Assembly: GCA_903889905.1 (NCBI GenBank) | Contig: CAISZI010000028.1 | Coordinates: 4,156-68,155 of the forward strand | DNA from: Candidatus Wirthbacteria bacterium | Lineage (GTDB): Bacteria; Patescibacteriota; CG2-30-54-11 | DNA: 64,000 bases | Reading direction: 5' to 3' | Shown here: piece by piece, positions 6,001 to 57,142 of the stretch | Position numbering within the stretch: the stretch's first letter is position 1 | Layout: every line of letters starts with the position of its first letter | The notes under the pieces: generated by a model | Database searches by the model: none | Told to the model about the DNA's origin: nothing | Seen by the model: only the letters and a program-made list of their open reading frames with translations | Translations under genes and position numbers: made by a program

Positions 6001-9000
6001 TTGCTATCGCTTTACCGTTTCGACCAAAGCAACGTTACAACCGGGTTATTCGGTCAAAAATGACGCACTTGCGATTGGCTACAATCAATCTGGCAGTGCC
6101 AACTGGATTGATGCCAACAAAATCACGGCAAATGCTTCTATCCTCAATACCATTGGCCGTCCTGAATTTGACCAAAAATCTGCCAAAGCCGTGGCGTTTG
6201 CCCCCAATGGCGACATCCTTGGTGACGGCGCCTACAATCCTGGCGATACCGTGCGCTATACCATTCACCTCGAGAATACGGGTAATATGCCAGCGACGAA
6301 CGTGAGACTGATCGATCCACTACCGTCAGCACTAACCTTTGTGCCTCACAGTGTCACGCTCGACAAAATCGGCAAAGACGAAAGCCAGGCTGCAATCTGG
6401 GACAATACCAGCAAGACGCTGACGATTGCGATTGACGCCATGGCCCCGGATGGCAAGACGGATATCACCTTTGACGCAGTGATTAATTCCCCGCTCGATA
6501 ACGGCACAACCATTACCAACATTGCCTATGTCAGTGACACGGAACATTACAATATCAATCTAACCAATGACGCAAATGCCACGCCGCTTCCAGCACAAAT
6601 CAATAATATTGCCAATCCAGCCTTCACCAGTGCCATGAGCACCTCCTTCAAAGTCGCTTCCCGTCCGATCTTCACAGCCACCAAGACTGCCAGTCCTGAG
6701 CCCACATCGATTGTTCTCCAGGGCGACACATTGACTTATACGGTGACCATCACCAACACCGGCAACATGACCGCACATAATACTGTGGTCGCGGATGTGC
6801 TCGATGGCGCGCTGGTCAGCCCCAATTATTCCAGTTCGCCCTTTGCGACGCAGTTTGATACCATCACCCGTACCGAAATGTGGAATATCGGCGACCTGCT
6901 CCCGGGCGATGCCAACAAAGTCACCCTGATCTATAGTGCCCGCGTTTCCAGCCAGGCGCCAGACCTGACCCGTATCCACAATTTTGCGACCATGTATGCG
7001 GTGGGAGCTATCCCGACCAATACCAATACCGTCACCCACATCGTCCACCCGGCGCTGATTGTCAGCAATGCCAAACTTGTCCGCCTCGTCTGCGATACCT
7101 CCGGCGTCTGCAAACCCAACAATGACGGCGTCCTCAATCCCGGCGATATTGTCCAATACACCATCCGCATGGCCAACCGTGGTCTTGGCGTCGCCAGCAA
7201 TATTCACGTGGTTGACACGCTGCCTACCAACATGAGCTTTGTCGATGCCAATCCTGTCGCCCGCGTCACCGGCAATACGATTGACTGGGAGATTCCGAGC
7301 CTGAACGGTTTCAGCACCATGGACATCATCGTCAATGCCAAAGTGAACGCCGGTACCGAATGCAACACCACCGTCTCCAATGGCGCCCAGATCACCTACG
7401 TGGGTGCGGACAATACGGACAACACCACAACCGTCAACATCATTTCGCCACCCGTCAGCGTCTGCAGCCCGGTTGTCTCCTATGACCTGACCCAAAGCAG
7501 CATTACGGCAACCATGAAAACCGACGCCAATCACGACAGCAAACTAAACAGTGGCGACACCATCACCTTTAACGTCAATTTAAACAACACAGGCAATGGC
7601 GACGCTACCGGCATTAATGTAGCTGACGCTGTCCCGCTCTACACCACCATCGTCCCCAATTCGATCACCCAAAATGGCGCCTATGATGCCACCACCAACA
7701 AAATCAGCTGGACCAATGTGACGGTCCAAAGCGGTGGAGCCAACAAGGTTCTTTCCTTTGACGCCATGGTCAACCCTTCTGGTGTCTCGACCGACGCCAA
7801 CAATCCGACCGTCATCAAAGACAATGCAACCGTCCAGGGCAGCGTTGGCGACCAGAACATCCTGATCGGCCCCACGCTCTACAGTGAACGCCCACTGACC
7901 TATCCCGACTTCACGATATCGACCAAAAATGTCTCGATCAGCAGTGACCTCAACAAAGATGGCCAGGTAAACAATGGCGACACGCTGCTCTACACGATCG
8001 TTCTCAAAAACACAGGGAACGCCACCACCAACGTCGTGGTCTATGACACCCTCCCGCCGGGTCTGGATTGGGTCGCAGGCAGCCTCACGACCAATGACAA
8101 CATCAGCATTGACGCCAGCAATGGCAATGCTATCTTCTGGACGGTCAAAAACATGGCCGGTGGCAGTTCTTCTAACCCTGCGTTGCTCACCTTGACCGGT
8201 AACGCCCTGGTCAAAAATGTTGCCCCGGACAAACTGCTGCTCTGCAACAGCGCCCACATTACCGGTATTGACGAAGGCTCAATCGCCACCATCAATGACA
8301 AATGCATTTGTATCAATAACGTATCGAATATAACCGCCACCAAGACCGTGGCCAACATCACCCGCACCGACGGCCAGTACCGCATCGGCGACGTCGTCAG
8401 CTACACCATCACCGTCACCAACCATGGCGCCAATACGGCCAATAATATCAACATCGACGACACGGTGGACGGCAACCTGATTTACCAGAGTGGCTCGATC
8501 AAAGGCGGTGATAGTCGCAACGACAGCCAGGCACCCAATCTGCACTGGACCATCAATCAACTTGCCATTGGTGCCACCGCGACACTCACCTTTGACGCCT
8601 CCATCCGTTCCGGACTACCGGGCGGCACCGTCATCTCCAACAGCGCCAATGTCTCTTCCACCGACCAGAACAATCTCAAAGCGGCTGCACCAGATATTAC
8701 ACTCGCCGCCATGCCTTACTTTGGCGCCTCCAAAAAGTCCGCTGACCAAACTGCGGTCAAACCTGGTAATGTCATTACCTACACCATCAATGTCCAAAAC
8801 AGTGGCAATCTCGCTGCAACCGGTGTGAACTTCACGGATGCGATCCCGGCCAATGCCTCACTGGTAGCCGGCAGTGTCACCCTGGATGGTCAAGCCCAGG
8901 CCAATCCTACTGGTGCGATTGCCATCGGCCTCGGCAATATGGACATCAACGCCAGCCACACCATCACTTTCCAGGTACTCAGCGGCGCCAACGAAACCGG

Positions 9001-9298: not shown

Positions 9299-9649
9299 AT
9301 GAAACTCAAATCCACAATTTATCTCGCGCTTTTCCTCCTGCTGCCCCAGGTGGTTTTTGCTGATGACTGGCAGGTCAATACGGTCTTCGGCATGGTCAAC
9401 ACCCAAAACACAGCGCTTAGTGATTATCTCAATCTCATCCTCGATTTTCTCTACGGCATCATGGGATTGGTCGCGGTCATTCGAATTTTCTACGGTGCTT
9501 TCCAATATATTCAATCCAACGGCAATCCTGACCAGGCCCAAAAAGGCAAACGCATTATTCAGCATGCGGTTTATGGTTTACTCCTGGTCCTGTGCGCCGC
9601 TGTGATCACGGTTACTTTTGTCACTATCAAACTACCCACCATCAAATGA
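9299..9649 (+). CDS. VirB2/TrbC-like pilin-type small membrane protein (116 aa) with a signal peptide and two TM helices
   Basis: The protein reads MKLKSTIYLALFLLLPQVVFA|DD, then an ectodomain segment, then a hydrophobic helix LILDFLYGIMGLVAVIRIFYGAF, a charged loop QYIQSNGNPDQAQKGKRIIQH, and a second helix AVYGLLLVLCAAVITVTFVTI. This topology is typical of T4SS/conjugative pilin precursors. Its TGA stop overlaps the ATG of the downstream gene (ATGA at 9646-9649). Confidence 0.5.
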   Translation: MKLKSTIYLALFLLLPQVVFADDWQVNTVFGMVNTQNTALSDYLNLILDFLYGIMGLVAVIRIFYGAFQYIQSNGNPDQAQKGKRIIQHAVYGLLLVLCAAVITVTFVTIKLPTIK

Positions 9650-12600
9650 TCCAATTACACCAACCCAAAACCTGGCTGATCGTCCTGCTCCTCACACTCA
9701 CTTGTGTCGGGTTGGTCGGACAGGCACCAACGGCCGCAGCGGAACAGCTGAGTAGTATTCCCTATTGGTCCGACGCCACCAAGGAATCCGCTCTGCTCAC
9801 ACAAGCAAATAATCAGATTTATGGCAATCCACAGACCGATGCCAGTACCTACATCAAGGGTGCAACAGCCCTTGACAATGACGCCTCACAACTGGCCTCA
9901 ACCATTGAAAATGACGTTATCAGCGTCATCAAAGACACCAAACTGAAGCAACCAGCACAAGTGGCAGCCATCAAAGATATTGTCTACAAAATCTATCGTC
10001 CGGCCAATGCCTTTGTGAATGCATCCCCCAGCAACGGCGCCGACACCAAGGCTTATGTCGCTCAATTTGGCATTGTCAATTTTTTACGCATGTATTTGGG
10101 CCAGTGCACTGGCAGCCTGGGCAGTGACCCTTACTGTTCCAACCAAAGCTGGTATAGTGCTCCCAATGGCGACAATGCCTACAACTATACTGGGCCCAAT
10201 CAAAACGAAGTCCGCACTGCCACAGCCTATTATTTGCAGCAGGCAGCCGTCAAACAACCCTTTTACGATCGATTGAGCATCAACAACGATGGGACGCTCA
10301 CCGAAACGACTGGGATTGTCACCGAAATCAACCAGTTCCTCAAAAATTTGGATGACGCAACCTTGCAATCCAAAATGCTGACCCTGAAGACTTCTATGCT
10401 CGACCCGACTGACCCGACTAAAACTATTAACGTCCCCGAATATTCATTGGCTTCCAGCCAGCTTTACATGATTGTCTCCAAAAACCAAAGCCTGATCACC
10501 AACAAAGACTACACATTTTTCTGGACTTCTGATTATTTCCCCGGTGCGCCGGCTGCCAGCCTGACCACGCTGACTGACCTGACTGCTGATTTTCAATTGG
10601 TGGCCTACGTCCGCGCCAAGACCATTTATGAAAAAAATCGTTCCCAAAAACAGGCCCAATATAGCCTTGCTACCCAACTCACCAAGGAAGTCAGTGATGT
10701 TTACGGCACGCTCACGGCGTCACCCTATGATATGTCTACTGTCGTAAGCACTTTGAGCACCAAATTTGCAACAGTCAAAACATTAGGAAGTACCTGTAGT
10801 GCAGCGGAACAGGGGTACATTGGATGTACAAATAGCAACATTGAACCCATGAACATGGCGGACAATGCCAGTCAAGAAACTGTTATCCAAAACGCAATCG
10901 AAGCTGCCACGCAGGCGGTAGAGAATTACACCAAAACCTACCAAGGCAGCCCCAATCTGGGAGATCCCAATACGATTGCTGATATGGGCAAAGCTCGAGC
11001 CAGTATCTTGGCAGCACGTGATTCCATTTTGCGTTATTTGTCTGAAATGACCGACACCGCCAACCAACGCATCAATGAAGCTACGCTCAACATCGACCAG
11101 CTCGCCAATATCATTGGCAACCAGCTCTCGTCGCTCACCTCTGTCAATTCGCTCTGGACAGAGCTGCGCAAAGCCCTGATGAACCTGATCACCTGGTTAT
11201 TCAGCATTTTTGGCAAAATACTTAACTTTGGTATGACCTCGATCAACAACGAAGCGAGTTTGAATGCCATCTTCACGCTCACCGTCGGACTGGCCAACAT
11301 GATGTTTGTGCTCCTGGTGGCGCTTGCGGGACTCGCGATTGCGCTGGAGTGGAATGTGCAGACATACAGCATCCGCAACATTATCTGGCGCTTTATTGTG
11401 AGCGTCATCGCGGCTAATGCCAGTTTCCTGATTTCCCGCATTTTTGTCGACTTTTCCCTGATTTTTTCCAATGTTTTCCTCAGCATGGCATCCACTCTGA
11501 CCAGCAATACGACGGAATTGTTTATTCGCATGGGCACGGTTAACGGCACCTCCACGCTCGGACTTTCCAGTGCTGCCTTAAGTCATTTATTCGGTTCGCT
11601 GCTTACTTCCAATACCGCCGCGGTGGCCAATAATGTTTTTCAGAATGACATTTCCGCCGTGCTGGTCCTGGTCGTGATTATGCTGATTGTCGCGGCGGTT
11701 GACATCATGTTGATCGTGCGTACGGCAGCGATGTGGTTACTGATCATCGGTTCGCCCTTTATCCTGGCGCTCAATGTTCTGCCCAACACCCGCAGCATTT
11801 TGTCCAAATTCGCCAAAATTTTTGCCCAGCTGCTGGTGATCGCACCGATTGTAGCCATGATCTTCCTGATTGGTATTTCTCTGGCACAGTTGAGCGATGA
11901 TTTGCTCAAAATCCTGATTGGAATCGCCACCTTTACACTGATGTTGCTCTCGCCGTCGTTCCTGTCTTTTTTCAGCAACATTGTCAAAATCAACAAACGT
12001 TCGGATGCCCGCACGGCCATTGCCACCGCCTACAACAACAACTCCGCGCCGACATCTCCGCCCGGGAGCAGCGCCAAACCGAATTCCCCCACAGGGCCTG
12101 CTGGAACCAGTATCAAAAATACGTTTAATACCAATATCAAAAATTTCATCAACCGTCCCAAAAATGAAACCATGCCCGCAGGTCTGGGTGAACTGCCTCC
12201 GCAATCCATCCTGACTGCGGTCAAAAGCGGTGTGCTGAATAAACTGCCGCCCGAGGAACTGGACAAAGCTTTTAGCAAAATGAGCAAAGCCCAACGCGAA
12301 GCGCTGCTCTCGACCTTCAATGCCAAAGACCGAAATAGCGACCCGCTGTGGACCGAAGACCAGCAGGAACTGATCGGGAAACAGGTGAGCAAAAGCGATA
12401 TCAATGGCGCAGTACGCTCGAGTGAGTTGATTTCCAAAGCCTCGGTGGCCAAAGATTTCAATATCAACAAATTTGTCAAAACCGCAACGCCCTCAACGGG
12501 AGGAACCGAGCCCCTTGCCGATGAAATCAGCAACCAACTGGCGCAGGAACAAAACGATCAGCTCCAAAACAACTTACAGCATAAACTGGAAAGCAATAAA

Positions 12601-15387
12601 CTCTCTCCCCAGCTACTGCAGACGCTGTTCAGTCACGCACGCGGTGTTCCCTTTTTGGGTGGCCTGCTCAAATCCGGTACCGGCAGACCCCTGGGTGAAG
12701 CACTGGTCGGCAGCTACTATCAGAGCAATCCCCGCGAGATCACAGCGCTGGCCGGTGACATCAATGCTTCCGACTCTGTCCGTTCCGACGCCGCCAAAAC
12801 TGTGCTCAAAGTCGGTGTCGAAGCTTTGGGACAGGCACTCATGCAAAATCCCGATGATCCACAGCTCCGCGCCGCGGCCAAAGACCTGGTGACGATCATG
12901 CCCGAACAAATTGCCTCACTCTTAAGTGGCAATGACGACAAACAGTCACTGCGGGAATCCTTTGTCAATCAAGGCTTGTATCGCCAAGCTCCCTCGACCA
13001 CTGCCCCGGTCATGAGTTTTGATACAGCTCAGCCGCTCGGCACCTTCTCGACTCAACCGCTGCCGGCCAACGGCAACGGCCAGATTGACCAGAGCACCGC
13101 GAATGACATGAGTGGCTTGTACCGTCCCATACCCCCGGCCCATGTCCCGGTCATGAATTTTGATGGGGCGCAGCCGCTCGGTCCAGCCTCGGCTCAACAA
13201 CTGCAAGCCAAAATCAGTGGCCAGATCGACCAGATCACAGCGGGTGACGTGAGTGGACTGCTGGATAAAATGAACGAAATACCTACGCTTTACCGGAATT
13301 CACTGGGCAACCTCGTTGATCAATACAATCAGCAACTGGGTCATTTCGGTAACCAGGGCACACTAAGCCAATCCGCCGCCCAAACCATTAATCAAAATCG
13401 CGACCGTATCGCCCAGCTCGGCTTTAATTTAAAACAAACCGCCAATCAGGACATGGCTGCCGCGGGTGAATTAACGCGCATGAGTGGCCCCGAACTGCAG
13501 CAAGCCAGCGCCGATCTGCTGTCGGTTGGACTCCCGGCGATGATCGCCTCCAACCCTCAAGCCGTGAACGCTACTCTGATGGACCGTACGCTCCAGGGCT
13601 TGTCCCAAAACCCCGAAGTTTTCAAACCACTTATCTACTCCATGCTGTCGCCGCAGTCCGATATCCCGCCCGCCGTGTATGCCAATGGCTTGCAGGAACT
13701 GTTGCAGACCCATCCCGAAATGGTCATGCCCGAACATGTGGGTCACGCCATCAGCAATCTCAGCACCAATCCCGAAGCCTATTCACCTGTGGTCGGCGCC
13801 ATGGCCGAAATGTTTAATCAAAACAAAGACAAGATTGGTCAGACTGGACAACTTTCCATTCCTGCTGCCGCCGAACTGGCAGTCCACGCCGACGAACTTG
13901 CCACCCACAACGCCCCCTTGATCCTGAACGCCTTGCCCAATCCGACGCCGGAACTCAGTGCTGCCATTGCCAGCAAAGCTGCCAGTCAAGGGATCATGGG
14001 ATTACCCGATGGATTGATCCATGACGGTCTGGATTTCACACTCCAGAACCAATCCCTGGAATTCACCCCCGAGCAGTTTGCCCTGGTGGAAAATCGCGCC
14101 AGAGAAAATCCGGCAGAATACATGCCGCTTTTAAATCAAGTTGTTGAACATTTCAATGACTCCAATCTGGATGGCGCTGACCTTAAGCTCAACATGCCTG
14201 CCATGATGACCGTTGCCAGCCAGGAAAATTCACTGCGCGATCTTGGCTTTGAAATCAGCAGCCAGATCAGCGGACAACTCAAAAACCTGGCCTCCTCCCA
14301 AAACCTCGACCTCGGCAGCCTCGACAACATTGAAAAAGCGATTCGTGAAATTCCCAAAAACATGTCCCTGCCCAACCCCGGCGAAAACACCACAGAGAAT
14401 GCGGCCAAAAACACCAAATACGACGAACTTCCGGGCCTGGTGCACAAAACCGCCGCCGACCAGGACGAACTGGCGCGCGACAAAGTGGATATTGCCTCCA
14501 GCCTGGGCAAAAAGAACAGCCATTCTGACAATCTGGGCACGCTCGAGGATTATGCCCTCAATGTCCAAAGTGCGCTGATTGCCGGCGAAATGAGTCCGGA
14601 TTCGGCTTCGCCTGTCGACAAAAATGCCGAAATCGACGCGGTCAGTTTGCACGACCTGGCCAAATCGCTTGACCCCGGTACCGCAAGCTCGCTAATTCCC
14701 GAAAGCACGCAGTTTGTCCTGCCAGAGACAACTACCGGTGGCACTTTTGAAAGCCCAGCCGAACTCAGCGGCCAACCCGATCTGATGGCTGCAGTATCCA
14801 ACAATGAAGCGAACAACAAATCCAATGACTGGCCCCAGAAACCTTTTGCCTCTGATGCCATCCGCCCGGATGCGCCACTTGCGGACGACAAGGCCTCGAT
14901 CCAAAGCGGCATGAACGATCTCAACAAATTCCTCAGCAGCAAACCCCAGGCTATGCCCATTCCGACGGGTAACGCGGCAGCGCCCGCTGCAGCCGCCACC
15001 GATATGATGATCGATTATCAAGCCATCAAGGATTCCACGCTACCCAATGTACCTTTTCCTGAAACGATCGTCTCTGCCATCAGCGTAACGCCGGAATTGG
15101 AAAAAATCCTCAACCATAACCGCCTTGATGCTACCATTCCACCCAACACGTCGATCAAAATTGCGGAACCGCTGCAGGTTAAATCAGAATTATCAGCTGG
15201 CTCTGTCCAAAACCCGGCCAAACCGCTCAACCCATCCATTTTGCCTAATCAGAACAAGCTCAGCGACAATCTGCAGGATTTTGCCGCCAATGTCCAAAAC
15301 GCTGTCGGCCCGTCACCGGATGAAATTTTCCTCAACCCTGTCCCGGATGCCATCGCCGCTTTATCGCTCAAAGACCAAAAGGATTAA
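9646..15387 (+). CDS. Giant membrane protein (1913 aa) with a signal peptide, a ~480-aa extracytoplasmic N-domain, a ~7-TM bundle and a ~1150-aa Q/N/P/A/L-rich low-complexity C-terminal tail. It is a VirB6/TrbL-like candidate (an extended VirB6, as seen in Rickettsiales).
   Basis: The signal peptide MIQLHQPKTWLIVLLLTLTCVGLVGQAPTAAA begins at the ATG at 9646, which overlaps the pilin stop. The ORF-track start at 9592 is a GTG inside the pilin gene and is unlikely. TM helices span aa ~520-790 and include the motifs MLIVRTAAMWLLIIGSPF and LIGIATFTLMLLSPSFLSFFSNIV. These are clearly conserved in the paralog at 48791-52507. The assignment to the VirB6 family rests on architecture plus adjacency to the pilin-like gene and has not been verified by HMM. 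Confidence 0.5.
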   Translation: MIQLHQPKTWLIVLLLTLTCVGLVGQAPTAAAEQLSSIPYWSDATKESALLTQANNQIYGNPQTDASTYIKGATALDNDASQLASTIENDVISVIKDTKLKQPAQVAAIKDIVYKIYRPANAFVNASPSNGADTKAYVAQFGIVNFLRMYLGQCTGSLGSDPYCSNQSWYSAPNGDNAYNYTGPNQNEVRTATAYYLQQAAVKQPFYDRLSINNDGTLTETTGIVTEINQFLKNLDDATLQSKMLTLKTSMLDPTDPTKTINVPEYSLASSQLYMIVSKNQSLITNKDYTFFWTSDYFPGAPAASLTTLTDLTADFQLVAYVRAKTIYEKNRSQKQAQYSLATQLTKEVSDVYGTLTASPYDMSTVVSTLSTKFATVKTLGSTCSAAEQGYIGCTNSNIEPMNMADNASQETVIQNAIEAATQAVENYTKTYQGSPNLGDPNTIADMGKARASILAARDSILRYLSEMTDTANQRINEATLNIDQLANIIGNQLSSLTSVNSLWTELRKALMNLITWLFSIFGKILNFGMTSINNEASLNAIFTLTVGLANMMFVLLVALAGLAIALEWNVQTYSIRNIIWRFIVSVIAANASFLISRIFVDFSLIFSNVFLSMASTLTSNTTELFIRMGTVNGTSTLGLSSAALSHLFGSLLTSNTAAVANNVFQNDISAVLVLVVIMLIVAAVDIMLIVRTAAMWLLIIGSPFILALNVLPNTRSILSKFAKIFAQLLVIAPIVAMIFLIGISLAQLSDDLLKILIGIATFTLMLLSPSFLSFFSNIVKINKRSDARTAIATAYNNNSAPTSPPGSSAKPNSPTGPAGTSIKNTFNTNIKNFINRPKNETMPAGLGELPPQSILTAVKSGVLNKLPPEELDKAFSKMSKAQREALLSTFNAKDRNSDPLWTEDQQELIGKQVSKSDINGAVRSSELISKASVAKDFNINKFVKTATPSTGGTEPLADEISNQLAQEQNDQLQNNLQHKLESNKLSPQLLQTLFSHARGVPFLGGLLKSGTGRPLGEALVGSYYQSNPREITALAGDINASDSVRSDAAKTVLKVGVEALGQALMQNPDDPQLRAAAKDLVTIMPEQIASLLSGNDDKQSLRESFVNQGLYRQAPSTTAPVMSFDTAQPLGTFSTQPLPANGNGQIDQSTANDMSGLYRPIPPAHVPVMNFDGAQPLGPASAQQLQAKISGQIDQITAGDVSGLLDKMNEIPTLYRNSLGNLVDQYNQQLGHFGNQGTLSQSAAQTINQNRDRIAQLGFNLKQTANQDMAAAGELTRMSGPELQQASADLLSVGLPAMIASNPQAVNATLMDRTLQGLSQNPEVFKPLIYSMLSPQSDIPPAVYANGLQELLQTHPEMVMPEHVGHAISNLSTNPEAYSPVVGAMAEMFNQNKDKIGQTGQLSIPAAAELAVHADELATHNAPLILNALPNPTPELSAAIASKAASQGIMGLPDGLIHDGLDFTLQNQSLEFTPEQFALVENRARENPAEYMPLLNQVVEHFNDSNLDGADLKLNMPAMMTVASQENSLRDLGFEISSQISGQLKNLASSQNLDLGSLDNIEKAIREIPKNMSLPNPGENTTENAAKNTKYDELPGLVHKTAADQDELARDKVDIASSLGKKNSHSDNLGTLEDYALNVQSALIAGEMSPDSASPVDKNAEIDAVSLHDLAKSLDPGTASSLIPESTQFVLPETTTGGTFESPAELSGQPDLMAAVSNNEANNKSNDWPQKPFASDAIRPDAPLADDKASIQSGMNDLNKFLSSKPQAMPIPTGNAAAPAAAATDMMIDYQAIKDSTLPNVPFPETIVSAISVTPELEKILNHNRLDATIPPNTSIKIAEPLQVKSELSAGSVQNPAKPLNPSILPNQNKLSDNLQDFAANVQNAVGPSPDEIFLNPVPDAIAALSLKDQKD
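13006..13262 (+). repeat. Intragenic tandem repeat with two ~141-bp units, encoding PVM(S/N)FD(T/G)AQPLG...GQIDQ...SGL twice
   Basis: ccggtcatgagttttgat... at 13006 is repeated as ccggtcatgaattttgat... at 13147. The encoded peptide PVMSFDTAQPLGTFSTQPLPANGNGQIDQSTANDMSGL aligns with PVMNFDGAQPLGPASAQQLQAKISGQIDQITAGDVSGL. Confidence 0.7.
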
Positions 15388-48712: not shown

Positions 48713-48741
48713 TTGTTAATTTGGGGCAGCTTTGTTATAAT
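48713..48741 (+). promoter_or_regulatory. Near-consensus sigma-70 promoter (TTGTTA, 17-nt spacer, TATAAT) upstream of the second VirB6-like gene
   Basis: ttgtta at 48713-48718, spacer atttggggcagctttgt, and tataat at 48736-48741, about 50 nt upstream of the TTG start at 48791. Confidence 0.5.
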
Positions 48742-48790: not shown

Positions 48791-51700
48791 TTGCCACAAG
48801 CCAAACCAAAACCAAAACTGATTCTCTCGCTGCTCGCTGCCCTGCTGGTTGCGGTGGCTGTGCTTGGCTTCGCGCCTGCATCAAGTCATGCCGCCAATAG
48901 CCCCACCATTGAACCCAATGAAGGCTACGCCGGCATTCCGGTTTCGATCAACGCATCCGGTTTGGGTACGATTGTTGACAAGTACGATGACACCAAAATG
49001 TACGTTGAATTCGTCGACGCAATGGGCACCAAAACCAAAGCTACTGTCACCTATCCGGTAGCCCAAAACTGGAACGATACCAACGTCAATTTTACCGTTC
49101 CCAGCGGCCTTCCCAACAACGCCTATGATGTCTTTGTCGTGAGCAACGGCAACCGGATTGGCCCGCTGAAATTTCACATCATCGCCTATGCCACGCCCGC
49201 CAACGTCAATGGCACGCCGGATTATACATCCGACTACATCATCGCCAACACCCAGAGCATTAACGTGTCTGACGCCATTCGACAGATTGCCCAGGGCTTT
49301 CTGCTACCCAGCAAAGACACCATTATAGAATTGGGCAGCTACCTGCAGGATGCGCTGGTTTTGAAACTAGACCTGGGGTCCTCCGACACGGATGGCAGTG
49401 CTTACAAAAAACTGGAGCCCATCTGGTCAATCAGCCACAACCTCGTCAATAGTCTTTTTTTGCTGGCGATTGTCTTCATTGGCATCATGATCACTCTCCG
49501 CATGCAGAACCGCATCAACCGCTACTGGCTGCGCAACATTATCCCCCGTGGCATTCTGGCACTGGTGCTGATCAATCTCAGCCTGCTCCTGAGCCAGGCG
49601 CTGATGGATTTCTTTGTCATCTTTACCCATGTCATCCGTGATTCATTCTCCACCATGCCTTCGGGCCAGCAGTTTGCGACCGCTTTACTGGGTGATTTGC
49701 GCTTAAACATTTTCGTGCTCGCCATGCTGGCTTTTTATTTGCTCACCATTGCCCTGATGTCATGCGCCCTTGTAATGATGATCCTGCGTACTATTGCCAT
49801 CTGGCTGATGGTCGCGATCGCGCCTTTTGTCTTCATGGGCGTCTTGTTTCCATTTACGAGCCACGCGCCAATTGTCTGGTTGAAACGATTTATGCAAATG
49901 CTGCTGGTGGGTCCAATCGCAACCTTTTTACTATTTATTGGTTACCAACTGAGTATCTCGGTCAAAGCGGATTTTGAAAATGCCGACCTGATCCGGGCTT
50001 TTATTGGTATCGCCACCCTGACATTGCTGTTGTTTATTCCTTCGTTCATTGGCAGCATTTTTGACTATGTCCAAAAAGTTCTCCCAACGAACAAAAATAC
50101 CACCAATAATACCAGCACAACCACCAAAACCTCGAACCAGAACAATCAGGACAACTCTACCTCCATCAAGAATAAAATCGGGCTCCAGGATGGCAGCCTG
50201 GCCGACAAAATCCAGACCATCAAAATTCCGCTCACTGACCAGTTCCAAAAACGCTTCCAGTCGCTGATCAGCGGTAAACCAAACATCAGCACCCCAGCCG
50301 ATTCCGGCACGGCGGCAGTCAATTCCGCCGCATCAGACGCCAGACAGACCGCGACCAATGCCAGCACTGCAAGCTCCAGCGAAGCGACGACGACCGAACG
50401 CAAGCAAGGGCCCAGCCGCGACGACTCCGCCGGCAAACCCCAGATTGACCTGGACCGGGCCAAAGAACAGGCACGCGCCAAGAACAACGTATTGTTTGAC
50501 CAGGCCACCCCCAACAAACTGTTTGATACTGCACCACCGCAACTGGTGATTAACTGGCTGAACGACAAAGGCAAAATCAAAATCGTCAGCGCCGGGCTCG
50601 TGGCAAGCAAAGGCAACCTTGAAAACAACAAAGCCAACGCCATCATCGACAGCCAGCCTGGCAAACAGTTACTTTCCGACATGTATGGCAACGGCAGTAA
50701 AGACGAAAAAAATGCCTCATCGAATTTGATTTCCAATATCTTCCTGGCTTCACCGGACCGGATCAAAACGATCGTTGATGCAACCGGCAACAACGCGCCC
50801 CCGATCAAACAGGCTGCACAAACGGTACTCGAAGCTGGCATCGTTCGTCTGGGCCAACGCCTCCAGGAAAACCCAGGCGATGAAAAACTGCAGAAAGCTG
50901 CCGAACGCGTTGTCATGTCTGCGCCTCATCTGCTCAGTTCCACTCTGGCCAATGTTCCCGACCAGGGTCCTGTGCTAATCAATGCCGGCATTATGGAGCT
51001 GGCGGCAACGCTGGGTGCCACCCTGGCAAAACTGACGGACAGGATTTCACCCCGAGTGATGTTTGCAAACCCGACACCAGACTCCAAGGAATATTTCGAC
51101 GTCGGACAGCTGGCATCACAGATTGTCGTTTATCCCGCATTGCAACTTTCACGACTTGGAACCAGCCATGCCGGCGCCCAGTTCGTGGCCTCTGCCGCAC
51201 TGTCCAACACGCCGCAAAGCACTGAAGTCAAACAAAAACTCGTCGGTGAACTCGAGCAATCCCCCAGTAATATTTCGCTGCAAGCGATTGCCGCCGAAAT
51301 TTTCAAACACACTCCTCCTGCTGCGGTCGCTGCACTGCCTGTCCCCATTGCCACCGCTGCCCGTGAATATTTGAAGTCACCGGCCATGCAGCAAAAACCT
51401 GATCCGGAATTGATCCAGCAATACCTGACTGCGACCAGCGGTCCCGATCTGTTGCAGCACGAATCCCTGAGTGGCAATTTGCTCAAACAACTTAACCTGC
51501 CTGATTTGCTCAAACACATCGGCATTGAAAATCATGACAAAAACACACTTGAATTGCCCAGCAAAATCGTCATGGCTTCCCCGGTTGTCGAGTTGGTAGA
51601 AAAACAAAAAGATTTATTTAATGAATCCCAAAAAACACTTCCCTATCTTGAACCCCAGAATCCCGCACTGGCAGCTGCGACAGCGGTCAAACTGGTCGCC

Positions 51701-52507
51701 GACACGCCAGCTAATTTTCAGCCTGATTTGCATGAGGGCACCCGCGCGCTGGCCAAAAAAACGCTGCAGCATGAAGGTAACCAGGAAAACCTGCCTACCA
51801 CCATGAAGGCCAATGCCGCCCGGAACCTGGGATTGCCTGTAACGGACAGTGCTAACAATACCAATACGCCGGCAGCTGTGCAGGCACTCAAGCAATCGCC
51901 CATGTCCCAACCCAACCCACTTGATACCCAACAATCCGCTGATTTACTCCAATCTGCCAATGCGATTTCCACTGATTTGGCCGCCAAAATAAAGGCTAAT
52001 GCCGCCCGGAACCAGGGATTGCCTGCGACGGACAACACCGAAATTGCCAAAACGCCGGATGCATTGCAGACACTCAAGAATACGCCCATGTCCCAACTCA
52101 AACCACTTGATACCAAACAATCCGCTGATTTACTCCAATACGCGAATGCCAATCCTAATGCGATTTCCCCTGACATGGCTGCAAAAATGGTGATGACTCT
52201 ACCGATCGAAGACCTGGGACGCATACCCCAAACTGTCTCCGCCATGGCCGAGAATCAACTGCAGCACAAAGATTCTTCGCAGCTCACGCATGCAGACATC
52301 GAACTCGCTGCCCGCGTAATTGCCGCCACGCCCAAACCCACGCTCTCCAGCCTCCAGTCAAACACGTTCAAAGTTGGTGCGCAGCTTTCTGGCCAGGATT
52401 TAAGCCAGGCCACCCGCGACCAGGTGCAGATTACCCTCTCCGCAGAACTTGAAAAAATGATCGCCCCCCAGAAGTCGCCATTGAACGATCCCGAACTCAA
52501 CACTTAA
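48791..52507 (+). CDS. Paralog of the VirB6/TrbL-like giant membrane protein (1238 aa), with a signal peptide, an IPT/TIG-like Ig-fold N-domain, a ~7-TM bundle and a ~780-aa low-complexity C-terminal tail. It has a TTG start.
   Basis: The signal peptide is LILSLLAALLVAVAVLGFAPASSHA. The N-domain motifs PTIEPNEGYAGIPVSINASGLG...VTYPV...FTVPSGLPNNAYDVFVVSNG fit an IPT/TIG fold. The TM motifs MMILRTIAIWLMVAIAPF and FIGIATLTLLLFIPSFIGSIF match MLIVRTAAMWLLIIGSPF and LIGIATFTLMLLSPSFLSFF in the protein at 9646-15387. Confidence 0.5.
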   Translation: MPQAKPKPKLILSLLAALLVAVAVLGFAPASSHAANSPTIEPNEGYAGIPVSINASGLGTIVDKYDDTKMYVEFVDAMGTKTKATVTYPVAQNWNDTNVNFTVPSGLPNNAYDVFVVSNGNRIGPLKFHIIAYATPANVNGTPDYTSDYIIANTQSINVSDAIRQIAQGFLLPSKDTIIELGSYLQDALVLKLDLGSSDTDGSAYKKLEPIWSISHNLVNSLFLLAIVFIGIMITLRMQNRINRYWLRNIIPRGILALVLINLSLLLSQALMDFFVIFTHVIRDSFSTMPSGQQFATALLGDLRLNIFVLAMLAFYLLTIALMSCALVMMILRTIAIWLMVAIAPFVFMGVLFPFTSHAPIVWLKRFMQMLLVGPIATFLLFIGYQLSISVKADFENADLIRAFIGIATLTLLLFIPSFIGSIFDYVQKVLPTNKNTTNNTSTTTKTSNQNNQDNSTSIKNKIGLQDGSLADKIQTIKIPLTDQFQKRFQSLISGKPNISTPADSGTAAVNSAASDARQTATNASTASSSEATTTERKQGPSRDDSAGKPQIDLDRAKEQARAKNNVLFDQATPNKLFDTAPPQLVINWLNDKGKIKIVSAGLVASKGNLENNKANAIIDSQPGKQLLSDMYGNGSKDEKNASSNLISNIFLASPDRIKTIVDATGNNAPPIKQAAQTVLEAGIVRLGQRLQENPGDEKLQKAAERVVMSAPHLLSSTLANVPDQGPVLINAGIMELAATLGATLAKLTDRISPRVMFANPTPDSKEYFDVGQLASQIVVYPALQLSRLGTSHAGAQFVASAALSNTPQSTEVKQKLVGELEQSPSNISLQAIAAEIFKHTPPAAVAALPVPIATAAREYLKSPAMQQKPDPELIQQYLTATSGPDLLQHESLSGNLLKQLNLPDLLKHIGIENHDKNTLELPSKIVMASPVVELVEKQKDLFNESQKTLPYLEPQNPALAAATAVKLVADTPANFQPDLHEGTRALAKKTLQHEGNQENLPTTMKANAARNLGLPVTDSANNTNTPAAVQALKQSPMSQPNPLDTQQSADLLQSANAISTDLAAKIKANAARNQGLPATDNTEIAKTPDALQTLKNTPMSQLKPLDTKQSADLLQYANANPNAISPDMAAKMVMTLPIEDLGRIPQTVSAMAENQLQHKDSSQLTHADIELAARVIAATPKPTLSSLQSNTFKVGAQLSGQDLSQATRDQVQITLSAELEKMIAPQKSPLNDPELNT
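51806..52190 (+). repeat. Intragenic tandem repeat with two ~186-bp units, in the tail of the second VirB6-like protein
   Basis: aaggccaatgccgcccggaacctgggattgcct... at 51806 is repeated at 51992 as aaggctaatgccgcccggaaccagggattgcct.... The encoded unit is KANAARN(L/Q)GLP(V/A)TD...(L/K)PLDT(Q/K)QSADLLQ(S/Y)AN. Confidence 0.75.
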
Positions 52508-52669: not shown

Positions 52670-55600
52670 ATGGGTTTCAAGAAATGTCTTTATCTTGCCT
52701 GCAGCGTTTGCATAGCCGGGTCCATTGCTGCCACTTTTTGGGTAACCAATCCTTTTGCGACAGAAGCGGCCAGCACGTCGGCTTACCGTTGCCAGATCAC
52801 GACCATCACTGGCAAAATCTTCAGCAGTACCAATTTGGATGGAGTGTCAGGCCAATTCAAACTTCATCTCTCCGACGACACCCATGAATTGGTCAATGCC
52901 ACGGCGCTAACCGGAAATAGCTACACAATCCCACTCACCGGCCCGGGCATCACAGCTGATACAGCCAACCAATGGTACTTGTCGCTGGCTTCAGAGGATA
53001 ATACGCCACTCCCGATTCGAATCAGCAACGAAGGACTGTTCGAAGAAATGCAAATCAGCTCTGAAGCCGACCTCAAATACAAACTCTCCCAGGAAGTACT
53101 GAATTTCTGGTGTACAAGTCAGGTTTACAACAATGGCAAACTTACCCTGAACATCAAAATTCCCGGCCTGGTGCAGGGCTGGAAACTGGACAAACCCGAT
53201 ATCACCGTCAACCTGATCAGCCGTTACAACAATCTCACCCCGGACTTGATTGCCGCCCAGCATGGCAGCATCGCCAACAAAACCGACACCAATGGCAATG
53301 CCGTCACCGCGCTGTGGGATTTTGATCCAGCGCTGGATTACTACACGATTTTACGTGACAAAAGCGGCACGTATTACCACATCAACCCGACGGGGGCGGA
53401 GGCACAAGCCATTTTTGGCACGCCACTAAGTGAAGTACTGCCAGGGCAGTATCGTATTGCGCATATCTCAAACTGGATGGTCAACAACAATCTGGTCAAA
53501 ACCAAACCGCTCGAAATCACGCTGGGTGAAGCGGTCAACACCGGTAGCGTCACCGGTACCGTGGACTCGACATCGAACTTCACCGCCAACACGCGCCTCA
53601 AAGCCTACATTGGCAACATTTTTGCCCAAAACAGTGCCCCACTTGGGACCTCGCTCAAGTCCAGCAATTATACACTGAATCCTTTGGCCAAGAGTAATAA
53701 CTATACCTTTCTGGTTTCCAGTAAAGTTAATAACACTTTCCAGTGCTACGCCATCACCCAGTACAAACTGCAGGGCACCGCTCACACCGTCCCTGCGACC
53801 CAGCCAGACCCCTGGAAATTGAATCTGAGTGGCGCTGACATGACCACTGCCGCAATCCTCGACTTGAGCATTGATGCCAACAAAACTACCGATTGCAGCA
53901 GCTATGTCAAAACAGGAAACGATAACGCACCCGGCAGCCCAGATCCGGACGATCAGGCGGGCAAACCAACCGTCCTGCCCATTTCCATACCCATGACCTC
54001 ACCTCTTGGCGAAAACCGCCAGTGCAATCCCCTGCCTGACACTGCCTATGACTGGGGGACATGGAGTGGTTTCACCAACCCGATGGGTATTCATTTGCTC
54101 AATCAAGACGACCAATCACTCCTCAATCAGGATCTCACGGCTGCCGCTCAAGTAGTCGGCCCCCGGGGTTTTATGAAAAACATCTGGTATCCGATCATGG
54201 GTTTCGTGGGTGGGAGTTGCCCGTTTGGTGACTGCGGCGTGTGGCGTAATGGCAGCGCTCCTGCCGGACAGGTTTGTGCCAGCTGGGGTGTGCGCTTTGC
54301 CGCCGTCTCGCTGTTGAGCGGTGAAATCCCCCTGATTCGCCTGGCGACCCAAAACCTCCCTGCCGGTTATTGGCAGTCCCCATCTCAGGCTGGTCTGATT
54401 CCACGTGATATCGGCAGCAATATTATTTTTTACACTGCCAACAAAGAGTTTTTGCCTGAGCGTTATAGTGGCGGTCGCCAGGGTGGAATCGAAAAAGCAC
54501 CCATCCTGTTTGAGGTATTTAACGAAGTCAACCTGCCGGGTGAATGGGGCAATGCTATTGATGCCAAAGGGTATGCCGATTTCCTGGTTGGCACGTACCA
54601 GACTTTGCATGATGCCATCAACATCGGCCGCAACCCCTTTGACGGCACCAAGCAGGATCACGATGCCAACGCCGAATACCAGAACGTTTATGTCCTAAAT
54701 GCAGGGCTCACCCCATTTAATGGCACGAATGGCAAGACGTCATTGGACTACATTCTTGACATGTACAACGCCAATAGATCATTCCTGAGTTCCTTTGACA
54801 TCTGGGCCAGCCAGGGCAAACTGAGTTCCGATGCCTCCCATTTTGTGCCACTGGAAGGTGTTTCCTATCCAAGCATCCTGACCCCCAGCGTAACCGTCAC
54901 CAACCCATTTACCGATCCCGACTACAACTGCAACAATTATCCTGCCACCGCTTCAGCTACTGACCTGCCTGGCCTGGTGGCCAAGATGAACAGCGTCATG
55001 TTGCGCGGTGGTTTTGGTTCTACCGAATACCATCCCCTGGAATACAAACTCGAACTCTGTCTGCTCAAACGCATGATGAAAATTGAAAGCCTTGGCCAAC
55101 CCCGGATTGATAACCTCAAAGCGTTCCTGGTCGAAGCCGGTTATGCCAACACAGTACCCAATGCCGCGAGCTGGACCCGCAAAGCTGCTGACGCCTGGGC
55201 GACCCAATCCGACCTAGTGGGTTGGACATTCTGGATGTGGAAACAAACCACCCTGACCCATGTCACCAACTGGGGTGACTGGGCGTGGACGGCTCCGATG
55301 ATCGCGGCGATGAATGGATTCCAGGGAGCCAAAACAACTGGGATGACGATCGTCAAAGGTGACGGCAGAAGCCAACAGTTCAGTGCTGCTACGACTCCTC
55401 CCCCGGGGGCGCCAGCGGTCAGCTCAGGCCCGGCGATTCAGCCCGACAATGCCAGCGCTCCGGCGCTGGGTACAGGCCAGGGTGCCAATAGCGGCCAGCA
55501 GGAAACACTTACCATCAACCTCGTCAATCAGACCAACAACGCTTTGAATGTGCGCCCACTCGAAGGCAACGGTACTGTTCCTAACAACGTCAACTGCAGT

Positions 55601-57142
55601 TTATTCTCGGCAAGCGGCATGCGAGTGACAGCTCAAAGCAACCCAACTAACGCCGTGGCTGTCATCAATATCACCAAAGCCAACCTTGCCTCCACGCAAA
55701 TCAGTGTGCAGCCACTAGTCGCAGCAACAGGAACCATTGGCTATGTTTACAGTCTGAGCAACCTGAGCAATGTTACAGGAACATCGTTAACGCTGACCTT
55801 CAGCCAAAGTGGTAATAGCTGGAGCCTCACTCCACCTGCGGCTAACGGAAGCCAGTTGCAGCCGCTCACACCCACTTGTACCGGACTTACCGTAGGCACC
55901 CAGACCGGCAATCTGTTGATCTCCACTTTACGCAACTTGCCCCATCTGTTTGACACAGCCTTTGCCGATATCAATCAAGCCGCACGCATGCCCTGGGGAA
56001 CGACCGCCAGTGGTGAACTGTTTTTACAACCAACAGACAAAGCCGTTGTCCTGGAACTCAAACAATCCAAGTCCGCCTTCAAAACTCTCGATTTTGACTA
56101 TCGGGCACCGCTTGCAACGAGTCCTGCCATGACATTTCAGGTACTTATTTCCACGGCTGACTCAACCAGCATTGCCTACACACCCAAAACCGGCAGCACT
56201 TCACCGGGCCTCTGGATCAGTGCCAATGACCAAAACGGCACCTCCAAGTCTGGCTTTACCCAGGATGGCAAAATCGACTTGTCTTCCTTTCTGGGCCAGG
56301 ACATTGCGATTCGCTTTGTGGCATCCTACCCGGACAAACATGCACCCACTTCTATAGATCTCCCCAATCATGCTCTTTTCCTGCGCCAGGTTCTTTTTCA
56401 TGCCAATGATGCCAGCACCGGTCTTGCCTACTTCAACACCACCAGCAGCCTGCAAACCATTAGCCTCTTTAACAGCCAGGTACGGTCTTACTTGAGTACT
56501 GATCCAACCTTACCCGGCGACGCGGCGGTGACAACCCTTGATGACCTCGTGTCTGCAGGCATTGGTACTCCTGATGGCGCGGGCAAAAACCAGCATGGTC
56601 AGGTGAGCCATCAAATGACAGGTTCTCTCTGCGATCAGGTACATGAGAATGTCTGGGGCCTTACGCCCAACACCTCAACGGACGCGACGTACATTGATTT
56701 TGATTTCAGCAAACAATCCGGTTCCACAGTACAGGGCATGTCCTTTGGTACTGGCGGTGATTGCGGGAGTGGCCCCACAGACAACACCAAACTGACGATC
56801 GCAGCCATCATGCTCGACAACAATGGTATTCCTGACCCGACCCAGACACACATTCTCTGGAGCCGTGACCGTTTCAGCTCCTGGCAATCTGACTACCTTG
56901 ATTTGCAGCAGTATCAGGGCCACAAATTCATCCTGCGCATCTCCGCCGCTGCCCTTAGTGACACTAAGGTTACGACCGCCTTTATTGACAAACTGCGCAT
57001 CAGCCACGGAGACCTCTCTGGTGCTGTGGGGGCGCTCATCCCGAGTCTTGGCATTGTCACGTTTATCCTGCCCATCATCGGGTTGATCCTGCTGGTTGGC
57101 CTGTTGGCCGGTTGGTTGATCACACGCCGCAAACGCAAATAA
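52670..57142 (+). CDS. Giant (1490 aa) secreted surface protein with an N-terminal signal peptide, a C-terminal TM helix plus RRKRK tail, and a possible clan GH-A glycoside-hydrolase-like segment
   Basis: The signal peptide is MGFKKCLYLACSVCIAGSIAATFWVTNPFATEAAS. The C-terminus is ALIPSLGIVTFILPIIGLILLVGLLAGWLITRRKRK. The motif APILFEVFNEVNLPGEWG at nt ~54500-54550 resembles the strand-4 NEP acid/base motif of clan GH-A hydrolases; this is weak evidence from pattern only. Confidence 0.8.
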   Translation: MGFKKCLYLACSVCIAGSIAATFWVTNPFATEAASTSAYRCQITTITGKIFSSTNLDGVSGQFKLHLSDDTHELVNATALTGNSYTIPLTGPGITADTANQWYLSLASEDNTPLPIRISNEGLFEEMQISSEADLKYKLSQEVLNFWCTSQVYNNGKLTLNIKIPGLVQGWKLDKPDITVNLISRYNNLTPDLIAAQHGSIANKTDTNGNAVTALWDFDPALDYYTILRDKSGTYYHINPTGAEAQAIFGTPLSEVLPGQYRIAHISNWMVNNNLVKTKPLEITLGEAVNTGSVTGTVDSTSNFTANTRLKAYIGNIFAQNSAPLGTSLKSSNYTLNPLAKSNNYTFLVSSKVNNTFQCYAITQYKLQGTAHTVPATQPDPWKLNLSGADMTTAAILDLSIDANKTTDCSSYVKTGNDNAPGSPDPDDQAGKPTVLPISIPMTSPLGENRQCNPLPDTAYDWGTWSGFTNPMGIHLLNQDDQSLLNQDLTAAAQVVGPRGFMKNIWYPIMGFVGGSCPFGDCGVWRNGSAPAGQVCASWGVRFAAVSLLSGEIPLIRLATQNLPAGYWQSPSQAGLIPRDIGSNIIFYTANKEFLPERYSGGRQGGIEKAPILFEVFNEVNLPGEWGNAIDAKGYADFLVGTYQTLHDAINIGRNPFDGTKQDHDANAEYQNVYVLNAGLTPFNGTNGKTSLDYILDMYNANRSFLSSFDIWASQGKLSSDASHFVPLEGVSYPSILTPSVTVTNPFTDPDYNCNNYPATASATDLPGLVAKMNSVMLRGGFGSTEYHPLEYKLELCLLKRMMKIESLGQPRIDNLKAFLVEAGYANTVPNAASWTRKAADAWATQSDLVGWTFWMWKQTTLTHVTNWGDWAWTAPMIAAMNGFQGAKTTGMTIVKGDGRSQQFSAATTPPPGAPAVSSGPAIQPDNASAPALGTGQGANSGQQETLTINLVNQTNNALNVRPLEGNGTVPNNVNCSLFSASGMRVTAQSNPTNAVAVINITKANLASTQISVQPLVAATGTIGYVYSLSNLSNVTGTSLTLTFSQSGNSWSLTPPAANGSQLQPLTPTCTGLTVGTQTGNLLISTLRNLPHLFDTAFADINQAARMPWGTTASGELFLQPTDKAVVLELKQSKSAFKTLDFDYRAPLATSPAMTFQVLISTADSTSIAYTPKTGSTSPGLWISANDQNGTSKSGFTQDGKIDLSSFLGQDIAIRFVASYPDKHAPTSIDLPNHALFLRQVLFHANDASTGLAYFNTTSSLQTISLFNSQVRSYLSTDPTLPGDAAVTTLDDLVSAGIGTPDGAGKNQHGQVSHQMTGSLCDQVHENVWGLTPNTSTDATYIDFDFSKQSGSTVQGMSFGTGGDCGSGPTDNTKLTIAAIMLDNNGIPDPTQTHILWSRDRFSSWQSDYLDLQQYQGHKFILRISAAALSDTKVTTAFIDKLRISHGDLSGAVGALIPSLGIVTFILPIIGLILLVGLLAGWLITRRKRK

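Follow-up and report, generated by a model that had tools for sequence, protein, structure and literature searches.

Two very large membrane proteins are encoded on the forward strand of the 64,000-nucleotide stretch analyzed here (the window), which belongs to contig CAISZI010000028.1 of a Candidatus Wirthbacteria assembly. Their genes, referred to as paralogue A and paralogue B, are both present where a previous sequence-only reading of this DNA had placed them, and lie 33 kb apart with housekeeping genes between (Table 1). The start of each is identical in public gene calls, that of B being a TTG codon. According to their hydropathy, both proteins share one layout, in which a signal peptide and an N-terminal ectodomain precede five to six hydrophobic helices, and a long tail follows them. 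Directly upstream of A lies a small gene for a VirB2-like pilin of the kind found in type IV secretion systems (T4SS). A and B are interpreted here as anciently diverged VirB6/TrbL subunits (TrbL_3-type) of a monoderm/Patescibacteria-type T4SS, a reading that, together with the mechanism proposed below, is assigned a probability of roughly 0.6.

Judged from their sequences, A and B are true paralogues. A pairwise alignment (BLASTP with composition-based statistics) joins A 429-782 to B 85-430 with 84.7 bits (E=4e-20, 27% identity), which bears out the paralogy that had been proposed, and in a MAFFT alignment the cores reach 31% identity, with 80 or more columns identical. The hydrophilic N-terminal domains, of about 490 aa in A and about 170 aa in B, are different, as had also been claimed, and share no detectable similarity (best BLASTP E=0.74). 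The tails, of 1123 aa in A and 798 aa in B, contain no further hydrophobic segment. Conservation between the two proteins had been described as confined to the transmembrane (TM) bundle, which is refuted by a second BLASTP match within the tails (A 1020-1115 and B 646-738, E=8e-7). This match marks a block of about 110-140 aa, located about 200 residues past the core in both proteins and found in A, B and most of their close orthologues. When a hidden Markov model (HMM) is built from four sequences of the A-type alone (A and its orthologues), it scores this module at 39-44 bits in each of the three B-type proteins, where the module occupies the corresponding place; of 900 shuffled B-type tails used as control, none exceeds 11 bits. 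Since the module is common to A and B, their ancestor would already have possessed a tail containing it.

The affiliation of both proteins to the VirB6/TrbL family is based on sequence profiles and on structural models. An exhaustive search of 1.84 billion representative proteins with an HMM of the A+B core matches 9402 proteins at E<=1e-3 and 1352 at E<=1e-10, and 8 of 25 sampled family members match Pfam TrbL at E<=0.01 (best E=1.5e-6). A precomputed match to Pfam PF19590 (TrbL_3) is found in B and in its orthologue P0005. When a profile of the 25 members is compared with all PDB chains, TrwI, the VirB6 of plasmid R388, is the sole match at E<=10 (E=0.002), and profile positions 176-294 align with TrwI 145-271. 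TrwI chains also occupy ranks 1-5 in the Foldseek comparison of the AlphaFold2 (AF2) model of B with the PDB (E=1.2e-3 to 8.3e-3, probability 0.97-1.00), with target-normalised TM-scores of 0.33-0.52 and a root-mean-square deviation (rmsd) of 7-11 Å. The predicted VirB6-like fold of B thus stands beside the homology of the family profile to a characterized VirB6. The TrwI matches of the A core are weaker than those of B (8rtd_L: probability 0.84, target-normalised TM-score 0.42). A Kyte-Doolittle scan locates six hydrophobic segments in each protein (549-567, 583-601, 672-690, 694-712, 729-747 and 756-774 in A; 218-236, 254-272, 299-317, 335-353, 371-389 and 403-421 in B), in keeping with the four to six or more helices of VirB6. 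The core residues N220, Y245, N262, S264, R333, P345, P354 and P375 of B are invariant in the 25 family members.

The T4SS of Patescibacteria are built from VirB4, TrsD, PrgI/VirB3, VirB6 and VirB2-like pilins (PMC12102498). The nearest outgroup relative of A and B, P0011, is located in a full T4SS cluster of the monoderm/Patescibacteria type, which comprises a pilin, two TrbL_3 proteins, a 1244-aa protein, DUF5663, PrgI/VirB3, a TraC-like protein, a VirB4-like ATPase with DUF87/AAA_10/P-loop_TraG domains, and M23 and lysozyme hydrolases. The TrbL_3 paralogues of this cluster (L085/L086 1479-12187) have 694 and 728 aa, and the first of them is followed by the 1244-aa protein; duplicated VirB6 genes accompanied by a very large neighbouring gene may be a pattern of the wider family.

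The small gene upstream of A encodes the sole pilin of the window. It matches Pfam T4SS_pilin (PF18895; E=2.6e-11, 43.9 bits, cut-off 26.6) and the NCBIfam Mbov_0395 pilin-like conjugal transfer protein (E=7e-6), and combines a signal peptide with two TM helices (hydrophobic segments 3-21, 46-68 and 90-108). Its stop codon overlaps the start of A by 4 nt, and a pilin gene is placed directly upstream of the A-type genes of four loci from other genomes (L002, L003, L088 and L093). Because the two genes are translationally coupled and the pair is conserved in other genomes, A is regarded as the partner of this pilin. In Gram-positive systems, virB2-like genes likewise adjoin virB6, and the products have been modelled as a pilus standing on a VirB6 pentamer (bioRxiv 10.64898/2025.12.18.695078).

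Table 1. Features of the two paralogues and of the genes beside them (nucleotide positions refer to the window; aa, residues of the encoded protein).
Feature	Window position	Strand	Extent	Evidence or remark
VirB2-like T4SS pilin gene	9299..9649	+	116 aa	signal peptide and two TM helices
Paralogue A, extended VirB6/TrbL-like protein	9646..15387	+	1913 aa	open reading frame (ORF), homology to B, hydrophobic segments, A-type orthologues
A signal peptide			about aa 1-32	
A predicted helical ectodomain (about 470-490 aa)	9736..11205	+	about aa 33-520	
A hydrophobic core ("TM bundle"), VirB6-like	11206..12015	+	about aa 521-790	core alignment, hydropathy
A basic low-complexity linker			aa 791-990	
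A helical-repeat tail (predicted)			aa 991-1913	
A tail module common to B	12616..13035	+	aa 991-1130	motif VL..G...LGQ.L..NP.D..L..AA..V...P
A two-copy tandem repeat in tail	13006..13260	+	aa 1121-1158 / 1168-1205	66% identity
A degenerate helical repeat array (predicted)	13192..14265	+	about aa 1183-1540	unit like GL..L.Q.PE.V.PEHV...I..LS.NPE.Y.P....M...FN
Paralogue B, extended VirB6/TrbL_3-like protein	48791..52507	+	1238 aa	ORF, PF19590, PDB profile and Foldseek matches
B signal peptide			about aa 1-34	
B N-terminal Ig-like beta-sandwich (predicted)	48917..49180	+	aa 43-130	AF2 strands, Foldseek
B conserved pre-membrane helix			aa 136-205	
B VirB6-like hydrophobic core	49406..50080	+	aa 206-430	
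B linker			aa 431-615	
B tail			aa 616-1238	
B tail module common to A	50636..51055	+	aa 616-755	
B two-copy tandem repeat in tail	51791..52189	+	aa 1001-1067 / 1063-1133	61% identity
Candidate sigma-70-like promoter of B	48713..48741	+		TTGTTA, 17-nt spacer, TG-TATAAT
G1 giant surface protein	1..9220	+	>3051 aa	frame open to window start; upstream of pilin and A
G2 giant protein	52670..57142	+	1490 aa	signal peptide; C-terminal TM anchor then RRKRK; immediately downstream of B

The AF2 model of B residues 1-460 has a mean predicted local distance difference test score (pLDDT) of 71, rising to about 80-93 in the core. The N-terminal domain is modelled with seven strands (pLDDT 56-87 by block), and its Foldseek matches include the filamin repeat 2dia (E=0.038, probability 1.00, target-normalised TM-score 0.47), Ig domains of the Sap S-layer protein and the DBB domain of BCAP. 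An IPT/TIG-like domain had been proposed at this position. The Ig-like part of that assignment is borne out by the predicted sandwich, but Pfam TIG (PF01833) does not match B aa 1-170 even at E<=10; one member of the 25-sequence family alignment does match it (E=3.1e-4) and, from its sequence, is probably the B-type orthologue P0009. An Ig-like/E-set domain is therefore supported with moderate model confidence, and strict IPT/TIG membership is not established. The candidate promoter of B, about 50 nt upstream of the start, has 10 of 12 matches and an extended -10 element, a match to the consensus only, and no terminator-like site is found on the forward strand between B and the next gene.

The ectodomain of A, by contrast with the short one of B, is modelled with a pLDDT of about 75-93 over model residues 10-470 as a mainly alpha-helical domain, with several helices of 25-85 residues and two small hairpins. 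It has no Pfam match, and its fold has no PDB match at E<=0.001 in Foldseek (best E=0.049), in agreement with the domain of about 480 aa and unfamiliar fold that the sequence-only reading had described. As confidently modelled, it is a new helical domain without a structural relative in the PDB, and among the top 150 family members it is restricted to eight A-type proteins. Two Cys pairs are present in the ectodomains of A, P0002 and P0003, which is compatible with an extracytoplasmic location.

Ten representatives match the core profile at E<=1e-30, namely B and nine others; A itself is represented in the protein library by a 126-aa fragment of its 90%-identity cluster and is hence not among them. 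The orthologues of the A-type (P0002, P0003, P0004, P0006, P0007, P0008 and P0010) have an N-terminal domain of about 460-510 aa and a tail of about 860-1000 aa, and the B-type (B, P0005 and P0009) has an N-terminal domain of about 175 aa. At 50% clustering the clade amounts to about ten representatives, all annotated as "hypothetical protein" in public data. A word-indexed homologue search with full-length B returned B alone and, with the alignment of the tail module, nothing at E<=0.01, its own input proteins included, so that the latter result was given no weight; a scan of GTDB genome contigs with B found no relative, and a metagenome scan with A aa 1-800 found nothing; the metagenome scan with alignment A3 added three more A-type loci.

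Alignments of orthologues extend over the entire protein, at 28-40% identity. In the core, identity amounts to 33-56% among A-type proteins and 40-45% among those of the B-type but falls to 19-28% between the types, and the distance between the types is similar to that separating them from the outgroup, so that the duplication long predates the divergence of these lineages. Each type also has a synteny of its own: in L002 and L003 a G1-like giant adhesin, a pilin and the A-type gene are followed by a convergent tlyA, and in L001, as in the window, the B-type gene is followed by a G2-like giant, transaldolase and YidC. With orthologues and neighbourhoods proper to each type, the duplication is ancient, and the N-terminal domains and tails behave as lineage-conserved modules rather than as hypervariable cassettes. 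Identity between orthologues is 57-61% in the pre-membrane helix of B, 43-59% in the hydrophobic core, mostly 36-48% in the shared tail module (18% in P0003), 29-42% in the A ectodomain, 19-29% in the B Ig domain and 18-25% in the distal tails, the last two evolving fastest. Of the duplication followed by diversification of exposed parts that had been suggested, the divergence of the flanking domains after duplication stands; the event is old, however, and the modules have since been conserved by lineage.

Both tails abound in A, L, S, Q, N and P, and each contains one two-copy repeat at the protein level, consistent with the composition and internal tandem repeats noted earlier. When the alignment of A-type tails is compared with itself by HHalign, off-diagonal matches of E=1.7e-15 to 1.2e-11 reveal a recurring unit (GL..L.Q.PE.V.PEHV...I..LS.NPE.Y.P), which the shared module resembles. 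The tails are accordingly described, from their sequences, as arrays of old and degenerate repeats, predicted to be helical, that follow a low-complexity linker, and not simply as disordered low complexity. Tandem Repeats Finder (TRF) detects no tandem repeats in the DNA of either tail; the repeats are recognizable only at the protein level and are too diverged to be visible to it. An enrichment of "NP" motifs in the tails gave an unconvincing result. The tail module also has a marginal match to the GAT domain of GGA1 in the PDB profile comparison (E=6e-5 for the whole sequence, domain i-E=0.008, first 57 positions only), a homology that was rejected as generic resemblance between helical hairpins.

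In the mechanism proposed for A and B, the hydrophobic core would oligomerize at the cytoplasmic membrane, probably as a pentamer by analogy with TrwI of R388 and PrgH of pCF10, and would form both the base of a translocation channel and the platform where VirB2-like pilin subunits leave the membrane and polymerize. A would partner the pilin encoded directly upstream. The N-terminal domains, exported by the Sec pathway, would project outward as a 470-aa helical domain in A and as an Ig-like sandwich with a helix in B, where they could provide contacts specific to each paralogue, for example with the cell wall, with G1 or G2, or with a host cell, and may substitute for the missing VirB5 tip or stalk protein. 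The tails, with a basic low-complexity linker followed by helical-hairpin repeats, are tentatively viewed as cytoplasmic docking scaffolds for ATPases or substrates. The description of A and B as host-interaction envelope proteins would then hold in that they are plausibly part of a T4SS for cell-cell or host contact, but not in the sense of generic envelope proteins, as they are VirB6/TrbL subunits and A is coupled to a pilin. In Southlakia epibionticum, the one cultivated model, the virB6 and pilin genes are essential for epibiotic growth (PMC12102498).

Several observations weigh against this interpretation. Both paralogues fall short of the Pfam TrbL gathering score (13-15 bits against 25.9; for B, 13.3-14.7 bits with PF04610 in the current Pfam library), A has no direct match to the curated TrbL profiles, and the A-type proteins have no precomputed Pfam match. 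Structural similarity to TrwI is moderate (TM-score 0.38-0.52, rmsd 7-11 Å, with a model pLDDT of 71). B has neither an adjacent pilin gene nor a T4SS neighbour, and no gene for VirB4, VirB3/PrgI, TrsD or a coupling protein is found in the 64-kb window or within 10 kb of the A-type gene in L093. Given their absence from the window, A and B can be tied to a functioning T4SS of this genome only tentatively. The remaining difficulties concern the side of the membrane on which the tails reside.

Within the same protein family, the tails may instead lie outside the cytoplasm, with the first two helices serving as an anchor, the other helices as an external stalk, and the tails displayed at the surface or released as adhesin or effector arrays toward a host cell, an arrangement that is possible rather than probable. 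Proposals of this kind exist for VirB6-3/-4 of Anaplasma and Ehrlichia and for TraG of the F plasmid (PMC7648143): the C-terminal repeats of the extended Anaplasma proteins VirB6-3/-4 are surface exposed and accessible to trypsin, and the C-terminal domain of TraG acts outside the cytoplasm. In the R388 structure, VirB6 enters the membrane with two N-proximal helices only; all else belongs to a periplasmic stalk, which includes the region TrwI 145-271 to which B aligns (PMC12857230). Composition points the same way. In a within-genome test referenced to 19 cytoplasmic proteins (18 negative) and 7 proteins of the window assumed to be exported (6 positive, the exception being G3, described below), every tail segment scores like an exported protein, at +0.037 to +0.106 per residue; the 1921 tail residues include no Cys, compared with about 1.0% in cytoplasmic proteins; and the distal tails are the part with the lowest orthologue identity. 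However, an N/S/T/Q/P-rich, Cys-free composition is also typical of disordered or low-complexity cytoplasmic regions, the tail of SSB being positive as well, and no cleavage or sorting motif was identified. Net loop charges over 151 homologues (+1.7, -1.6, +1.3, +1.6, -0.9 and +2.0) fit an N-out/C-in topology with five spans and one interfacial helix, which places the tail inside. The segment after the last hydrophobic helix is strongly basic, with a charge of about +7 in A and +5 in B over 70 residues (family mean +2.0 over 30 residues), and such a segment is normally held in the cytoplasm. The classical topology of VirB6 from reporter fusions is also N-out/C-in (cited in PMC7648143). The exposure of the tails assumed in the sequence-only reading is thus favoured by composition and by precedents (PMC7648143, PMC12857230) and disfavoured by the positive-inside pattern; with evidence pointing both ways, a slight lean toward a cytoplasmic scaffold is tentatively retained.

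A departure from T4SS function altogether would make pilin, A-type protein and G1 a stand-alone module for surface filaments or attachment that is independent of VirB4, and B with G2 a second, pilin-less one, neither translocating substrates. Five loci (the window, L002, L003, L088 and L093) do carry a pilin and an A-type gene in a housekeeping setting that lacks a VirB4 gene close by, both paralogues have giant adhesin-like genes as conserved neighbours, and about 37% of Patescibacteria VirB6 homologues are not near virB4 (304 of 480 are; PMC12102498). Yet T4SS genes are often scattered in Patescibacteria genomes (PMC12102498), the absence of VirB4 from this genome is established for the 64-kb window only, out of a source contig of 93 kb, and P0011, the nearest outgroup relative, sits inside a complete T4SS cluster. 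All VirB2 pilus assembly known to us is dependent on VirB4, and a stand-alone module is considered unlikely. The proposal that A and B are phase- or antigenically variable envelope proteins, with exposed domains diversifying fast under host selection, could draw on the unrelated N-terminal domains of the paralogues, on the rapid evolution of the B Ig domain and distal tails, and on the behaviour of independent assemblies, all of which break near codon 100 of A, possibly through strain variation downstream. Three contigs from other samples run from the final part of G1 through the pilin gene into A, of which they include the first 90-99 codons, and a fourth record shows the same layout in its gene table, the only form in which it was compared. 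The samples with such near-identical contigs are ERZ18626762, ERZ27313102, ERZ1426681 and ERR4193360. Window position 9943, at about codon 100 of A, is the last base of three of these four records; the Logan contig stops 27 nt before it. No 15-mer repeat in 9916-9943 explains these ends, which may represent an assembly-graph branch caused by allelic variation in the A ectodomain downstream. The overlaps themselves, however, are 99.9-100% identical to the window, and orthologues in deeply diverged genomes have kept each domain type, at 28-42% identity. No simple-sequence repeats of at least five units and no homopolymers longer than 7 nt occur in or upstream of A or B, the tails have no tandem arrays at the DNA level, and an inverted-repeat or cassette signal was not noticed, no search having been aimed at one. 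There is thus no sign of phase variation, one of the options raised in the sequence-only reading, and variable envelope proteins are a highly improbable description of A and B.

An extension of the VirB6 interpretation would see pilin/A/G1 and B/G2 as two versions of a host-contact organelle in an uncultured, possibly epibiotic bacterium, in which the function of VirB5 has been absorbed by the A-type ectodomain and a tail of ~1000 aa is displayed on, or delivered to, the partner cell. This is a speculative and distinctly unlikely scenario; if true, extended VirB6 proteins would have arisen independently in a monoderm of free-living lineage and in Rickettsiales.

Each paralogue is accompanied by a giant neighbour. 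G1 contains 10 DUF11 repeats, DUF7619, DUF7927, SdrD_B, SpaA and NHL repeats (Pfam), and ends with a C-terminal TM anchor and a basic tail; no promoter-like site is found between G1 and the pilin gene. Its orthologues in L002 and L003 (46-50% identity) likewise precede the pilin and A-type genes. The idea that G1 is a T4SS substrate lacking a signal peptide was rejected, as its frame is open to the window edge and the true N-terminus lies out of view. G2 has no Pfam domain, and hints of choice-of-anchor J and IPTL-CTERM are weak. In L001 the B-type gene is likewise followed by a homologue of G2 (25-32% identity), with transaldolase and YidC as neighbours here too, and B and G2 form a conserved pair. 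A further giant ORF, G3 (34241-41272, reverse strand, 2343 aa), has no Pfam or NCBIfam match, signal peptide or C-terminal anchor; with its cytoplasm-like composition it was dropped as an exported protein and is probably cytoplasmic.

The rest of the window is occupied by housekeeping genes (tlyA, ssb, tgt, ruvABC, tpiA, uvrC, recG, rpe, tal, yidC and pur genes). Three tandem paralogous S41 (C-terminal processing) peptidases of 423, 430 and 434 aa, each containing a PDZ domain, are encoded on the reverse strand at 41384-45559. A Type ISP restriction-modification enzyme at 21715-25165 (reverse strand) is apparently split into two ORFs about 220 nt apart, one of 614 aa with N6_Mtase and Eco57I and one of 460 aa with the Type_ISP_C specificity domain. 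UvrC (31065-33374, reverse strand) is unusually long at 769 aa, and an inserted GNAT acetyltransferase domain divides its RNase H-like endonuclease domain into two matched stretches. The Maf ORF (30413-31267, reverse strand) shares about 200 nt with the 3' end of uvrC, and the true Maf start is probably further downstream. SSB (18212-19162, reverse strand) has 316 aa and two SSB/OB domains; a double-OB SSB is also encoded between rpsR and rpsF in L002. RecG is at most 48% identical to that of any GTDB species representative, its best matches being split between Anaerolineae and Patescibacteria. In every 2-kb bin the GC skew is below zero (-0.008 to -0.21), regardless of gene strand, and it is strongest, together with a positive AT skew, in the giant forward-strand genes.

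VirB6 is the least understood core subunit of T4SS. The clade described here offers a natural experiment, with two old paralogues that share a core and a tail module and differ in their exported domains, one type always coupled to a pilin and each having its own giant surface protein as a neighbour. In practical terms, annotation is improved, Pfam being blind to A-type proteins, and testable hypotheses arise on how pili are nucleated in systems without VirB5. "Extended VirB6" proteins with large hydrophilic C-proximal domains are a recognized class, whose role is an open question (PMC12857230).

With the VirB6/TrbL family (PF04610, PF19590) and its prototype TrwI of R388 (PDB 7o3v, 8rt9), A and B share the polytopic helical core, with matches of both profile and fold, the location of A beside a VirB2-like pilin gene, and relatives in clusters with VirB4 and VirB3. 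TrwI has only 342 aa, however, whereas A and B add a Sec signal peptide, an ectodomain of 170-490 aa and a tail of 800-1100 aa, score under the Pfam TrbL gathering cut-off and have no known VirB5 partner. The T4SS of Patescibacteria (or candidate phyla radiation), which are related to the monoderm MPF-FATA systems (PMC12102498), correspond in their parts to those encoded around the relatives of A and B, namely a PF18895 pilin, a VirB6-like protein, PrgI/VirB3, VirB4 and peptidoglycan hydrolases. In both cases no relaxase is seen, the genes are chromosomal and set among housekeeping genes, and duplicated VirB6 and pilin genes occur. The present case differs in that the window also has purine-synthesis genes, the VirB6 proteins of the clade are about twice the family median length (857 aa), and the paralogues are 33 kb apart with no VirB4 near them.

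The extended VirB6 proteins of Rickettsiales (VirB6-1 to -4 of Anaplasma/Ehrlichia and RvhB6a-e of Rickettsia; PMC7648143) and F-type TraG resemble A and B in the presence of several divergent paralogues per genome, in the concentration of conservation in the core and in very long, hydrophilic, repeat-bearing C-terminal extensions. The rickettsial paralogues, by contrast, stand in tandem within a single operon that also contains virB3 and virB4, in organisms with diderm cells, and their repeats are long, near-identical and strain-variable arrays at the DNA level. A and B are dispersed in a window with no virB3 or virB4, and their repeats, old and degenerate, comprise two-copy repeats at 61-66% amino-acid identity as well as cryptic helical units, the tails sharing a module of their own with no detectable relatives outside the clade. 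The VirB6 proteins of Gram-positive systems (PrgH of pCF10, and TcpH/Orf15 of MPF-FA with 700-900 aa; PMC12857230; bioRxiv 10.64898/2025.12.18.695078) share the monoderm setting, a VirB2-like gene of (S)OMIMO topology beside virB6, and larger versions with extra, poorly structured domains. A and B are larger still, and differ by a cleavable signal peptide, a folded N-terminal ectodomain and a tail of conserved helical repeats. The closest precedents are the paralogous extended VirB6 proteins of Rickettsiales and the larger VirB6 homologues of monoderms. What is new is a helical ectodomain unmatched in the PDB, a clade-specific repeat tail with a shared module, and the dispersal of the genes away from VirB4, all within a known protein family rather than a new kind of system.

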